Assembly (NCBI GenBank): GCA_007376385.1 | Contig: VMGC01000001.1 | Span: 1 to 64,000, forward strand | From: Parcubacteria group bacterium Gr01-1014_8 | GTDB taxonomy: Bacteria; Patescibacteriota; Minisyncoccia; Phycocordibacterales; UBA2100 | DNA: 64,000 bases | Direction of reading: 5' to 3' | Shown here: in pieces, positions 23,203 to 26,643 of the stretch | Layout: each line of letters starts with the position of its first letter | Numbering within the stretch: the stretch's first letter is position 1 | Made by a program: the position numbers and the translations under genes | The notes under the pieces: generated by a model | The model's input: the letters and a program-made list of their open reading frames with translations, nothing else | Told to the model about the DNA's origin: nothing | The model's database searches: none

Positions 23203-25344
23203 TCACTTCCTCGCCGCAATCACCTCATCCGCCACATTCCTGGGGACAACAGCGTAGTGTGAGAACTCGAGATTCGGGACCGCGCGGCCTTCGGTGAGAG
23301 AGCGCAGCTGTGTCGTGAATCCGAACATTTCTGAAAGCGGGACTTTGGCGGTCACAACACGCGCTTGGCCACGCTCGCCCATCGCTTCCACCGTGCCGCG
23401 TTTCGAATTTATCATGCCGGTCACATCACCCATGAATTTCTCCGGCGTCACGACTTCCAATTTCATTATCGGTTCAAGAAGAACCGGCTTCGCCGCCTTC
23501 ATCGCGTCCTGCATCGCATTGATAGCCGCGAGCTTGAAGGCAATTTCAGATGAATCAACATCGTGGTACGAACCATCGTAGAGATCTACCGATACGTCAA
23601 CAACTTGGAAGCCGGCGAGAACTCCCCTGTCCATCGCTTCTTTCAGGCCTTTCTTGATAGGCGTAATGTATTCCGCCGGAATAACACCGCCCTTGATGTT
23701 ATTGATGAACTCGAAATGGTCTTCGCGTTCGACGTTCGCTTTCACTTTCTTTCCTTCGACGACTGGTTCGAGCGGCTTCACGCGAATTTTCACGTGGCCG
23801 TATTGACCCCGACCGCCCGTCTGCTTGATGTGCTTGTATTCGACATCTGCATTGCCCTGAATTGTTTCGCGATATGCAACTTGCGGCTTGCCGGTCGTCG
23901 CTTCAACAGCGAACTCGCGCTTCATTCGGTCAACAATAATTTCCAAATGCAGTTCGCCCATGCCTGAAATGATGGTTTCTCCCGTCTCAACATCCGACTT
24001 AATACGGAACGTCGGGTCCTCATCAGAAAGTCTTGAGAGTGCGATGCCCATTTTTTCCTGGTCTGCTTTTGTCTTAGGTTCGATACGCATCGAAACAACC
24101 GGCTCGGGAAAAATTATTTTTTCAAGCGCGATGGGGTGGTCCGGGTCGCAGAGCGTGTTGCCTATCTTCACTTCCTTCATACCGACGGCAGCGGCAATTT
24201 CTCCGGCGTACACAACCTTGACGTCTTCTCGCTTATCTGCCTGAAGTCTAACAATGCGTCCAAGCCTCTCCTTCTTATTGTTCGCAGAGTTGTACACTGT
24301 GTCTCCTGCTGCAATACTTCCCGAATAGACACGGAAGAATGACAAAGCTCCCACGAATGGGTCTACCTGCAGTTTGAATACGAGCGCAGAGAACGGCGCT
24401 TCATCAGATGCCGGCCGCGTTTCTTCAGCTCCTGTATCGGTGTTGATGCCTTTCGCTTGAGGGACCTCGAGCGGGCTTGGAAGATAGTCAACAACTGCGT
24501 CGAGTACGAGCTGTACTCCTTTATTTTTGAGAGAAGAGCCCGTGAGAACTGGAAAAATACGGTTCTCAATGACCGCCTGACGCAATGTCTTTCGCAGAAC
24601 ATCGACGGGAATTTCTTTTCCTTCCAAGTAGTCGGTCATCATCGTGTCGTCGTTCTCGACGATGCGTTCGACAAGTTCTTTGCGATACATTTCCGCGTCT
24701 GCTTTGAATTTTTCTGGAATATCGTACGCGATGACTTGTTTACCCATCTCGCCTTCAAATTTGTACGCCTTCATCGACATCAAGTCGATAATGCCCTCGA
24801 AATCTCCTTCGAGCCCGATTGGAATTTGCAGACGAACTGCTTTTGTAGAAAGCCTGTCCAAAATGCTCGCGTATGATTTTTCAAATGACGCGCCCGTTCG
24901 GTCGAGCTTGTTGATGTAACAGATGCGCGGCACTTCCGCCTCCTCCGCATAGCGCCAGTTCGTTTCTGATTGCGGTTCAACGCCGGCAACACCGTCGAAA
25001 ACAACAACTGCGCCATCGAGGACGCGCATGGAGCGCTTCACTTCGGATGTGAAGTCGATGTGTCCGGGAGTGTCAATGATGTTGAATCGCACTTTTTGCG
25101 AGATGTCCGCACCCATGTACGTCGGGTTCCAGAAACAGGTGATGGCAGCAGCGGTGATGGTGATGCCGCGTTCACGCTCCTGTTCCATCCAGTCGGTTAC
25201 CGTATTGCCTTCATGCACTTCCCCAATTTTGTGAGACTCACCAGTGTAGTAGAGAATTCGTTCAGACGTGGTCGTTTTCCCCGCATCTACATGGGCTACT
25301 ATCCCAAAGTTTCTGACTTTCTCGAGTGGATAATCGCGACTCAT
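23203..25344 (-). CDS. fusA: translation elongation factor G
   Basis: [35 protein letters not shown] (G1 P-loop), DTPGHIDF (G3), INKLDR (G4), and the full five-domain length. The ORF as given extends a further 54 codons upstream, but the canonical start is the Met at 25344. Confidence 0.95.
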   Translation of the reverse strand: [713 protein letters not shown]

Positions 25345-25346
25345 AA

Positions 25347-25625
25347 TTAATTTAGCTTGGTTAACGTTAATCCCACGTTGGTCGAAAGGGGAGGGATTGA
25401 AAAGTGGTTTAAGGAGCTTTTCAAAAGTTTTCCCGTGGAGGAAAGCAGCGAGTTCTTCTGGTCGAGCGTTGAAAACCGTGGGCGACCAAGAAAATAACGA
25501 GTGCACAACGAGTATATTTTCTGAAGTACTCTTGTGGTGTTTTCAAGGAGCGACGTACTCGTCGCGACGACGGGTGCGACAATGCCGAAGTTGCGTACCT
25601 TTTCCAATGGATAGTCTCTAGTCAT
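25347..25625 (-). other. upstream ORF (92 aa) whose first 17 residues ([17 protein letters not shown]) duplicate the EF-G N-terminus; remnant fusA 5' copy or leader ORF
   Basis: Its stop (TAA) lies 2 nt before the fusA ATG. The 5' 51 nt encode the same peptide as fusA but with many synonymous differences. After residue 17 there is no EF-G similarity. Confidence 0.4.
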
Positions 25626-25642
25626 ATATTTACAAAAGAAAA

Positions 25643-25662
25643 ACGCCCAAGGCGTTCCAGTA
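25643..25662 (-). terminator. candidate intrinsic terminator/attenuator between rpsG and the fusA leader ORF
   Basis: Minus-strand sense: AACGCC-TTG-GGCGTT followed by TTTTCTTTTG. Weak (6-bp stem). Confidence 0.3.
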
Positions 25663-25683
25663 ATGTAGCGGAAATCAGCGGAA

Positions 25684-26160
25684 ATGCAACACTACATGCT
25701 AGTATGTCTGGTATTAGACGTTATTGCATCTACCTCTATGTCTATCTCTGTTGAGGGAGCAGGATTTACTCAAAAACAAGAACCGGGGCAGAAGACCCTC
25801 GCTGATTATCAAAAGAAAGCTGAAGCGCTTCTCGTGGCCCCTGACACTGCCGACGACCAGCCGGTGGCAGACCTCGCTGAGGAAATCATGACATGGGCCC
25901 ACAATGGGGATGGTAACGAAGAAGGAGGAAGACCACCGCTTCGCAAGGGCATGACGGAAGCAGAGTACGTGGCCCTCCTCTCGCCACTGGTTGAGCGTGT
26001 ATGCACGTCCCCTTTAAGACGGCCAAACGCCGTTTCGCTACGCAAACAAATTCACATACCGAGCCTACTTCCCGGGTCATTATTTAACAGGATCCAGTCC
26101 TCGCTCACCACCGCCATTGAAGCTAAAAAAGAAAAAGGACCTCAACAAGAGGCATTGTAG
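25684..26160 (+). CDS. hypothetical acidic protein, possibly spurious
   Basis: 158-aa ORF on the opposite strand inside the 840-nt rpsG-fusA spacer. No motif recognised. Confidence 0.25.
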   Translation: MQHYMLVCLVLDVIASTSMSISVEGAGFTQKQEPGQKTLADYQKKAEALLVAPDTADDQPVADLAEEIMTWAHNGDGNEEGGRPPLRKGMTEAEYVALLSPLVERVCTSPLRRPNAVSLRKQIHIPSLLPGSLFNRIQSSLTTAIEAKKEKGPQQEAL

Positions 26161-26181
26161 TCGCTGTCATGTGGTGGGGAA

Positions 26182-26643
26182 CTACCACGCAAAATGCGCG
26201 AAGGCCTTGTTGGCCTCTGCCATGCGGTGCGTTGTTTCTTTCTTCGTGACTGCTTCTCCTTCACCTCTGTGCGCCGCTTTCAGTTCTGTGAGAAGTGCGT
26301 CTGCCATTGGAATTCCTTTCTTTGATTCTGCTGCTTCAACTATCCAGCGAAGGCCAAGCGCAAGCCGGCGCTCTGGCCGGACCTCGCGAGGAACCTGGTA
26401 GTTTGCACCACCGACACGGCGAGAGCGAACCTCTACTGACGGGGATGCTTTTTCGAGCGCGTCTTCCAGTATCAACACTGGATCGCCTTCTTTTTTCAAC
26501 TCCTCCATCACTTTGTAGACTATCTTGCGCGCGGTGTCCTTCTTGCCGCGTTCCATCACATAGTTGACGAGCTTGGAAACTTTTACAGAGCCGTATATAG
26601 GGTCCGGCTGAGGCAAGTGGCGTCGTTTGATAGGTCGTCGCAT
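26182..26643 (-). CDS. rpsG: 30S ribosomal protein S7
   Basis: MRRPIKRRHLPQPDPIYGSVKVSKLVNYVMERGKK... is a canonical S7 N-terminus. 153 aa. Ends in TAG. Confidence 0.95.
   Translation of the reverse strand: MRRPIKRRHLPQPDPIYGSVKVSKLVNYVMERGKKDTARKIVYKVMEELKKEGDPVLILEDALEKASPSVEVRSRRVGGANYQVPREVRPERRLALGLRWIVEAAESKKGIPMADALLTELKAAHRGEGEAVTKKETTHRMAEANKAFAHFAW

Follow-up and report, generated by a model that had tools for sequence, protein, structure and literature searches.

Bacterial translation-factor genes that sense their own product are known from prfB, with its +1 frameshift at UGA, and from infC, with its AUU start codon. In the str operon of Escherichia coli, translation of fusA, the gene of elongation factor G (EF-G), is reportedly linked to that of rpsG, with ribosomal protein S7 acting as autogenous repressor, a model credited to Saito and Nomura. 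We know of no cis-regulatory leader that is dedicated to the EF-G gene, and a search of the literature for such a leader found none. Here, we analyse the fusA locus of Parcubacteria group bacterium Gr01-1014_8 within a window of 64,000 nucleotides (nt; positions 1 to 64,000 of contig VMGC01000001.1), in which a 92-codon upstream open reading frame (uORF) repeats the first 17 residues of EF-G (hereafter N17) and ends just short of the fusA start codon. Judging from comparative sequence data, this uORF is a worn member of a conserved, previously undescribed family of fusA leader ORFs in a Kaiserbacteria-like clade of the Paceibacteria (Patescibacteria), and we lean towards the view that such a leader ORF feeds ribosomes to fusA by termination-reinitiation. 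Small upstream ORFs that stimulate translation of the gene that follows have precedents (e.g. PMC8092293). We have seen no description in bacteria, however, of a design in which a short, conserved ORF repeats the first 17 residues of the essential protein encoded downstream, is kept under selection at the amino-acid level, holds a structured element and ends at that protein's start.

The uORF spans positions 25625..25347 on the minus strand and is followed by fusA (23203..25344, minus strand; 713 amino acids, five EF-G Pfam domains) across a junction that reads TAA-TT-ATG. An earlier, sequence-only reading of this DNA had already pointed to a 92-codon ORF that re-encodes the EF-G start and stops 2 nt before the fusA ATG, and that ORF is indeed found at this place. 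The fusA start itself, at 25344, is backed by the relatives, all of whose EF-Gs begin M-x-RDYPLEK. Between the N17 part of the uORF (ATG plus 16 codons; 25575..25625, minus strand) and the first 17 codons of fusA, 35 of 51 nt and 16 of 17 amino acids are identical. The 16 nt differences are distributed over codon positions 1, 2 and 3 as 3/1/12, bearing out the many third-position differences that had been described in these 51-nt stretches. When 16 differences were placed at random, one amino-acid change or fewer resulted in none of 100,000 trials, and P was still 0.0002 with only half of the differences left unconstrained. The longest identical run shared by the two N17 copies of the window is ∼6 nt.

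Downstream of N17, the uORF departs from EF-G. Its codon 18 is CCC (Pro, where EF-G has His18), the peptide then runs APVVATSTSLLEN, and the tail (Pro18, 74 more codons and TAA; 25347..25574, minus strand) keeps the frame open to 2 nt before the fusA ATG. A fusA 5' profile matched the uORF in nhmmer (E-value 6.5e-10) and aligned to about nt 62, i.e. codon 21; the similarity therefore reaches slightly past the 17 codons first described. Past roughly codon 21, neither tblastn nor local alignment against shuffled sequences nor nhmmer found any fusA similarity in the uORF or the spacer, and the notion of a decayed full-length fusA paralogue in the spacer was dropped. At its other end, the region 25674..25570, which covers the pre-uORF sequence and the first codons, aligns with the real fusA leader and start of L002, the nearest relative among the reference genomes scanned (EF-G 87% identical to that of the window; L001-L176 denote fusA loci in the comparison DNA, P0001-P0133 comparison proteins). 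By this alignment, it is the upstream copy that occupies the ancestral fusA start, behind the native leader, which runs counter to the earlier suggestion of a captured foreign fusA 5' fragment.

Our initial survey comprised 160 fusA loci from reference genomes and metagenomes, and a second copy of the fusA start was seen in the window and in L020, a Lloydbacteria genome, only; the 230 nt after uORF codon 17 had no match in these initial comparisons. Besides, the collections searched held no EF-G 90-100% identical to that of the window, and hence no sister genome, and exact-sequence look-ups of the 713-amino-acid EF-G and of P0001 returned no record. A phmmer search with the window uORF against 1.84 billion representative proteins yielded a single match, the 65-amino-acid protein P0122, which covered both the N-terminus and the tail. 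Its locus, L167, is arranged as S12, S7, a small PF05635 protein, the uORF, 9 nt and fusA. The EF-G of L167 is only 71-72% identical to that of the window; the junction falls within the same few codons, Pro18 is present in both, and the inserts are homologous. With a profile built from these two sequences, 12 small ORFs were retrieved (P0122-P0133; 55-103 amino acids, E-values 8e-24 to 6e-7, no Pfam domain), to whose tails that of the window uORF is homologous. Following the N-terminus, members share the pattern (I/V)A-P(V/I/F)(V/I)A...ENPRFST...LLSxTGKL(Q/E)FSRPLS, and Pro18 occurs in 12 of 13. The uORF peptides matched no family in Pfam or NCBIfam, and we found no description of a fusA leader-ORF family in the literature.

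The layout with the uORF directly before fusA recurs in four other lineages, three of which (those besides L167) retain the native leader. This recurrence also bears on the possibility of an assembly artefact, i.e. of two strains joined into a chimera. The window derives from a metagenome assembly, and L001, which is 100% identical over the 837-nt spacer and has the same gene order, is probably the same contig as the window and hence no independent check. The architecture, however, is found again in independent assemblies and samples: L167 comes from a JGI assembly and is 100% identical over 2423 nt to L168 from ENA, L169, L170 and L171 stem from three JGI samples, L172, L173 and L174 from JGI and Logan, and L175 and L176 are further assemblies with the same layout. 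We therefore consider the chance of an artefact negligible.

Selection on the duplicated start was assessed in uORF-bearing DNA; the loci of the leader-ORF family are L167, L170, L172 and L175 besides the window, and L020 has another insert type. Within each genome, 11-16 of 51 nt separate the fragment from the full N17; most of these lie at third positions, and 0-2 amino acids change. Between lineages, fragments differ by 5-18 nt (33-46 of 51 nt identical) with 1-4 amino-acid changes, and P was ≤ 0.011 for every pair. Nearly every one of these differences is synonymous, which indicates purifying selection on the peptide or on its translation. Certain synonymous states are specific to the copy and shared across lineages: the window, L170, L172 and L175 have GAA at codon 8 and GCA at codon 17 of their fragments, as against GAG (in all five) and GCC or GCG, respectively, in the full copies. 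Among the closest trio, identities (of 51) amount to 40-46 for fragment-fragment, 38-44 for full-full and 35-42 for fragment-full comparisons. Together, the copy-specific states and this identity pattern suggest that the start was duplicated once, long ago, and then inherited by descent. Of the options raised by the sequence-only reading, that of an old duplicate with selection on its peptide is thus supported by a multi-lineage family in which N17 diverges almost exclusively at synonymous sites.

Two further features of the uORF deserve mention. Codons 18-29 derive from the P-loop region (PVVATSTSLLEN versus EF-G's own 12 residues); the P-loop residues are lost, and the stretch is variable, with indels. 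Positions 15, 16 and 19, in turn, track the Ile/Val states of the host's own EF-G. A likeness of the peptide 'GLAALLDGKT' to a P-loop was judged to be due to chance (nhmmer E-value 0.13).

The same data speak to a reading of the duplicated start as a non-functional scar. Here, a foreign or paralogous fusA would have displaced the resident gene, through illegitimate recombination or deletion of a tandem copy, leaving the promoter and 17 codons behind, and the synonymous differences would predate the event. Displaced gene ends left by insertion are known from prophage e14 or phage 21 in E. coli icd. Like these, and like orphan arrays of effector and immunity genes ascribed to homology-facilitated illegitimate recombination (PMC5361080, PMC3240628), the window shows a short end duplicate beside inserted DNA, with mostly synonymous differences. 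What sets its 5' duplicate apart is conservation across lineages, with start codon, frame and N17 all intact, and the lack of a cargo gene, a recombinase or an identical core. The position of the fragment at the native leader and its nearly all synonymous differences would fit a scar, and true displacement scars exist at the 3' end of fusA in L166 and L003, whose duplicates fit the displaced-end scheme well. L166 has fusA, a Fic gene and then the last 48 fusA codons (6337-6480; 85% amino-acid identity), and L003 has fusA, a gene for an 827-amino-acid PG-binding surface protein, the last 37 codons (10261-10371; 95% identity) and a second such surface-protein gene. It seems that the conserved 3' end of fusA provides an anchor at which downstream cargo is inserted or displaced. 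Homology-facilitated illegitimate recombination and the sequential displacement of effector genes in Vibrio cholerae are documented (PMC3240628; PMC5361080).

At the 5' end, however, independent illegitimate events would not produce what is seen in four other lineages: junctions that are homologous and fall in codons 18-21, Pro in place of His18 in each, and inserts that are homologous too. The fragments also share copy-specific codons across lineages and keep their amino-acid sequence, and the strong divergence of codons 18-29, as opposed to 1-17, is incompatible with a recent unconstrained remnant. With 33-46 of 51 nt identical, the fragments are not near-identical either, which does not indicate recent transfer of a single module. 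The version of a single event, by homology-facilitated illegitimate recombination or a foreign allele, was dropped on the homologous junction and insert of P0122/L167 and subsequently on the 12-member family. A scar is hence largely refuted and, in our estimate, very unlikely. The same holds for the idea that a deleted second EF-G paralogue left this trace, since similarity ends at about codon 21 and the insert consists of a repeated three-hairpin element.

This element, termed E, comprises ∼80-95 nt with three hairpins, namely TTGAGAACC-nnn-GGTTCTCAA, a variable second one and CGGGAAAAC-nnnn-GTTTTCCCG; within the peptide, the hairpins show up as ENPRFST and LLSxTGKL(Q/E)FSRPLS. The stems of the second hairpin differ per copy (GCCC/GGGC, GUCCGC/GCGGAC, GGGC/GCCC, GGUC/GACC and GGUCGGC/GCCGACC), and five copies of E fold independently into the same shape, with z = -4 to -5.3. 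Formal covariation support for E is weak, as hairpins 1 and 3 hardly vary. Searched against Rfam 15, the window had no match at gathering thresholds, and permissive E-values for the leader and both intact E copies were at chance level only.

The window itself contains two copies of E. The one on the fusA side (25399..25490, minus strand), recognised by covariance model R1 and by BLASTN, is degenerate. It scores 79 bits with R1 (E-value 1e-13), although it is one of the three sequences from which R1 was built, and in BLASTN it is 82% identical over 57 nt to the L167 insert (E-value 4e-10). Its fold is lost (z = -0.5) through insertions that interrupt hairpin 1 (∼60 nt) and hairpin 3 (18 nt). 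Despite the wrecked hairpins, the window keeps N17, Pro18, the open frame and the position of the stop. The second, intact copy (48648..48555, minus strand) is intergenic, lying between the stop of the upstream gene (48684; a gene that we take to be pgk from its position alone) and the tpiA ATG (48501). It has no duplicated gene start, matches no Rfam family and is ∼80% identical to the E within the L167 leader ORF. Since this copy has neither a consistent reading frame nor a duplicated start, E is conserved at the level of nucleotides or structure. A coding origin of the insert was rejected accordingly: the tpiA and fusA copies are out of frame with each other owing to an indel of 7 nt in hairpin 2, the tpiA copy has a stop in the frame equivalent to the uORF, and the tail differences lack a third-position bias.

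The tpiA-side copy supports what we regard as the main rival, a tolerated selfish or mobile insertion. According to this explanation, E, or E together with a replacement fusA start, was inserted at fusA codons 18-21 without any regulatory purpose, was spread or lost by recombination among related genomes, and kept its frame and stop only so that fusA could be expressed through the insert. Besides the occurrence of E at an unrelated intergenic site, upstream of tpiA and with neither uORF nor duplication, it draws on the ∼80% identity of E between organisms whose EF-Gs are only ∼72% identical and on a distribution that is patchy on the EF-G identity matrix. Indeed, the family is patchy, several close relatives having no uORF: the EF-G of uORF-less L164 is 95% identical to that of uORF-bearing L172, and that of uORF-less L165 is 86% identical to that of L175. 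Accordingly, when relatives were compared for the uORF, as the sequence-only reading had proposed, some carried it and some did not. L020 has an insert of a second, unrelated type at almost this place in fusA; L164, for all its closeness to L172, keeps only a remnant of that insert type, which it shares with the distant L020. In L020 (2237-2345), a 32-codon uORF begins with the first 14 residues of EF-G and has its stop 10 nt before fusA. In L164 (2900-3000), the start is lost and a homologous remnant reads ACTTCGGCACCCC...ACGGGGC.AGGT...CCTAAT (local alignment P = 0.006).

Loss between repeats, as the insertion scenario predicts, is also consistent with L165, whose single copy resembles, by eye, the L175 fragment in its 5' half. 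Comparing L165 3001-3051 with L175 3624-3674 by eye, ∼25 of 27 nt of the first nine post-ATG codons match the L175 fragment, as against ∼20 of 27 nt for the L175 full copy. This suggests that L165 lost its leader ORF by recombination between the two N17 repeats. Moreover, cargo and duplicated gene ends are concentrated on either side of fusA, which is evidence that the ends of this gene in these reduced genomes are hot spots at which cargo genes or small elements insert and termini become duplicated.

On the other hand, a passive insert does not predict selection at the amino-acid level on the 17 displaced codons across lineages, and the copy-specific synonymous states argue for one old event and vertical descent. 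E was not found beyond the fusA leaders and the tpiA site in ∼1 Mb of related loci, nor in IMG/VR viral contigs, and it has no associated transposase or integrase, no terminal inverted repeats and no identical crossover core. The scarcity of E and its absence from IMG/VR led us to reject an abundant miniature inverted-repeat transposable element or a phage element. Site-specific integration of the e14/icd type was likewise set aside, there being no identical core (longest run ∼6 nt) and no adjoining recombinase gene. Weighing both sides, we hold a purely tolerated insertion to be possible, if rather unlikely. Even so, it would still show an essential gene surviving the interruption of its 5' end.

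Several other origins or readings of the locus were considered and discarded. Tandem duplication of the leader does not account for an insert that is unrelated to the sequence upstream of the uORF, and mutagenesis by a diversity-generating retroelement would not produce differences that are not adenine-specific. Long matches hinting at inteins or introns in fusA turned out to be the downstream tuf joined to fusA. Programmed bypassing of the T4 gene 60 type is contradicted by codon 17 (GCA versus GCC) and by the following codon, which is CCC and not a stop. Further, the gap is 281 nt as compared to ∼50 nt, and the uORF is open right up to the downstream copy, which possesses an ATG and an N17 of its own.

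In the reading that we favour, termination-reinitiation from the leader ORF, an old partial duplication of the fusA start (∼21 codons) would have come to flank the ∼90-nt element E, with the upstream copy retaining the native promoter-like site, the 5' hairpin, the U-rich leader and the start codon. Transcription of fusA would start from this native leader. Ribosomes would then initiate at the uORF AUG and translate N17, Pro18 and the tail, a step we infer because start codon and frame are preserved and N17 is conserved at the amino-acid level. Termination would occur -4 to +10 nt from the fusA AUG: the spacing itself, from uORF stop to fusA ATG, is -4, 2, 4, 9, 10 and 10 nt in six loci, with 2 nt in the window, -4 in L170 (an ATGA overlap), 9 nt in L167 and 10 nt in L020. 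These gaps make a translational control leader, as envisaged earlier, a plausible interpretation. Finally, ribosomes would reinitiate on fusA, before whose start no Shine-Dalgarno sequence is visible in the uORF-bearing loci. The leader ORF would thereby determine, and might even regulate, how many ribosomes reach the EF-G gene. Compared with each other, the uORFs of the window and L167 show net indels of 60, 18 and 3 nt, all multiples of three. In the lineage of the window, which lost the E hairpins and kept N17, the frame and the stop, coupling would be the part that is still under selection.

Known termination-reinitiation pairs offer the closest parallel. Such coupling reportedly requires that the two genes overlap or are separated by a very short gap (PMC6728339, PMC10666635), and the pairs described there resemble our loci in that both ORFs run in the same direction with the stop overlapping the AUG or lying ≤10 nt from it. 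The window (TAAnnATG) and L170 (ATGA) conform to this geometry, as does a downstream start without Shine-Dalgarno sequence. What sets the present loci apart is that the upstream ORF partially copies the start of the downstream gene, is kept at the amino-acid level and holds a three-hairpin element. Comparison with the E. coli str operon is instructive as well, since EF-G synthesis would in both cases be tied to an ORF just upstream, and L162 keeps the order rpsG, 9 nt, fusA. In contrast, the window fusA is uncoupled from rpsG by 837 nt, a terminator-like hairpin and a separate promoter-like site, and its partner ORF is a fusA-derived leader and not a ribosomal protein gene.

Certain observations weigh against coupling. 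The fusA AUG lies in an A/U-rich stretch and is not predicted to be masked; masking by RNA structure was rejected as a mechanism for this reason, which favours reinitiation over unmasking, yet also makes de novo initiation possible with no coupling at all. In dinucleotide shuffles, the openness of the frame was at best suggestive for a single locus (P = 0.077 for the window and 0.44 for L020). The tails of the window and L167 differ 12/7/8 by codon position, without a third-position bias, so that N17 and the frame look constrained, and not the whole peptide. The patchiness of the family implies that the leader ORF is dispensable and may be a tolerated insertion instead of a regulator. Transcription from the promoter-like site, translation of the uORF and reinitiation are each only inferred. 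Finally, coupling alone does not explain the 17 conserved residues or the host-tracking positions 15, 16 and 19.

A regulatory role of the leader ORF, e.g. the sensing of translocation through the hairpins, is a matter of speculation. In one conceivable form, which we consider doubtful, the leader ORF would be an autoregulatory sensor of EF-G: EF-G-driven translocation through the three stable hairpins would set the delivery of ribosomes to fusA, whose rate would then reflect the translocation capacity of the cell. The EF-G-like peptide would either signal from the nascent chain or imitate EF-G towards a factor that attends to newly made EF-G as well. The resemblance to prfB and infC is conceptual: there, a cis element before or within a translation-factor gene ties expression to the reaction of that factor, and a hairpin-rich leader ORF before the gene of the translocase would suit such sensing. 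The differences are that no recoding signal was found here, that feedback is hypothetical and that the hairpins of the window are destroyed. If true, no cis-acting feedback device would have been described before for a bacterial translocase gene, and the leader peptide would be unusual in mimicking the protein that it controls. The family offers a concrete and cheap test system for cell-free translation.

Upstream of the uORF, the leader combines a promoter-like site with a small hairpin. The former (TTGCAT, 16 nt, TACATT; 25662..25689, minus strand) is a candidate for the native fusA promoter that was read from the sequence, a strict consensus scan not having scored it. The latter (GGAACGCC-TTG-GGCGTTTT; 25658..25640) lies 15 nt before the uORF ATG and is followed by a U-rich run (TCTTTTG), the two together occupying 25630..25658 on the minus strand. 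The weak hairpin and T-run noted by the sequence-only reading are thus present, on the sense strand of fusA. Hairpin and T-run are 88% identical over 42 nt to the sequence just 5' of the real fusA in L002, and the hairpin is more conserved between these two loci (88%) than the coding sequence is (76%). Equivalent hairpins with differing stem sequences were found in 30 of 138 fusA upstream regions. The layout common to the clade consists of a TTGC(A/T)(A/T)-16/17-TA(C/T)ATT pair, a small GC hairpin, a U-run and 15-35 nt to the ATG. The promoter-like pair is also found upstream of fusA or its uORF in L002, L163, L170, L172 and L020. All of these elements, from promoter-like site through hairpin to U-run, lie ahead of the uORF in L170, L172, L175 and L020, and stand directly before fusA in the uORF-less L002, L163 and L164; L167, with its A/T-rich leader devoid of a hairpin, is the exception. 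Since the layout is present with or without the uORF, the hairpin belongs to the native fusA leader and not to the duplication.

These findings also address the proposal that hairpin and T-run form a transcription attenuator of the trp type, terminating conditionally, with uORF translation deciding on read-through. The GC hairpin and T-run are present and conserved, and the locus shares with the trp, his and pheST attenuators a short ORF in the leader of an essential or biosynthetic gene and a hairpin with a U-run nearby. However, the hairpin comes before the ORF, 15 nt upstream of its start and hence beyond control by uORF translation, which rules out attenuation as in trp; alternative hairpins and regulatory codon runs are lacking; and the same hairpin exists in relatives without the ORF, including L002, L163 and L164. 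A consensus scan found no terminator-like site between the uORF and fusA (25574..25345), and the fold of the leader region is not unusually stable (z = 0.36). A uORF-linked attenuator is thus highly improbable. Lying a few nt past the -10-like hexamer, the hairpin may instead be a 5'-terminal stem that stabilises the mRNA or a promoter-proximal terminator independent of the uORF.

The open frames at this locus mislead gene callers. The fusA frame is open for 54 codons 5' of the true ATG, and as a result the automatic annotation (L001) called a 767-amino-acid 'EF-G' from a GTG at 25506, hiding the uORF. Correcting such calls amounts to an annotation fix, as small ORFs of this kind are left unannotated or labelled 'hypothetical'. 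Spurious N-terminal EF-G extensions of 13-48 amino acids, read from the U-rich leader, also occur in other relatives (P0013, P0049, P0052, P0064).

As to the genomic surroundings, rpsL (27072..26647, minus strand) and rpsG (26182..26643, minus strand; ribosomal protein S7, Pfam Ribosomal_S7, E-value 1.9e-49) lie upstream of fusA, and right after rpsG the consensus scan marked a terminator-like hairpin (GCCTC-TTGTT-GAGGT plus T-run; 26125..26153, minus strand). The downstream neighbour of fusA is a 995-amino-acid PG_binding/PKD surface protein and not tuf. Throughout the 64 kb, neither a tRNA gene nor an Rfam family at the gathering threshold was detected. From the rpsG stop to the fusA ATG, the spacer measures 837 nt. 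While a spacing of 840 nt had been seen as anomalous, distances across the clade range from 9 nt (L162) to >2.3 kb, which makes that of the window ordinary. In the clade (L002-L176, upstream of fusA), rpsG and fusA enclose a variable island, with items such as HicAB and ParE-like toxin-antitoxin genes, a Mu Gam homologue, a PF05635 (23S_rRNA_IVP) protein, PspC, an abhydrolase and orphan ORFs; some relatives have ung, not rpsG, upstream of fusA.

Most of the spacer in the window is taken up by ORF158 (25684..26160), an orphan on the plus strand, opposite to fusA. It matched no Pfam family, and its sole match among 5.8 billion proteins was itself, a 140-amino-acid hypothetical protein of Parcubacteria Gr01-1014_8. 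Codon-usage scores of ORF158 and of the uORF tail were ambiguous, and the coding status of ORF158 is uncertain. The start of ORF158 overlaps the -35-like hexamer of the fusA leader.

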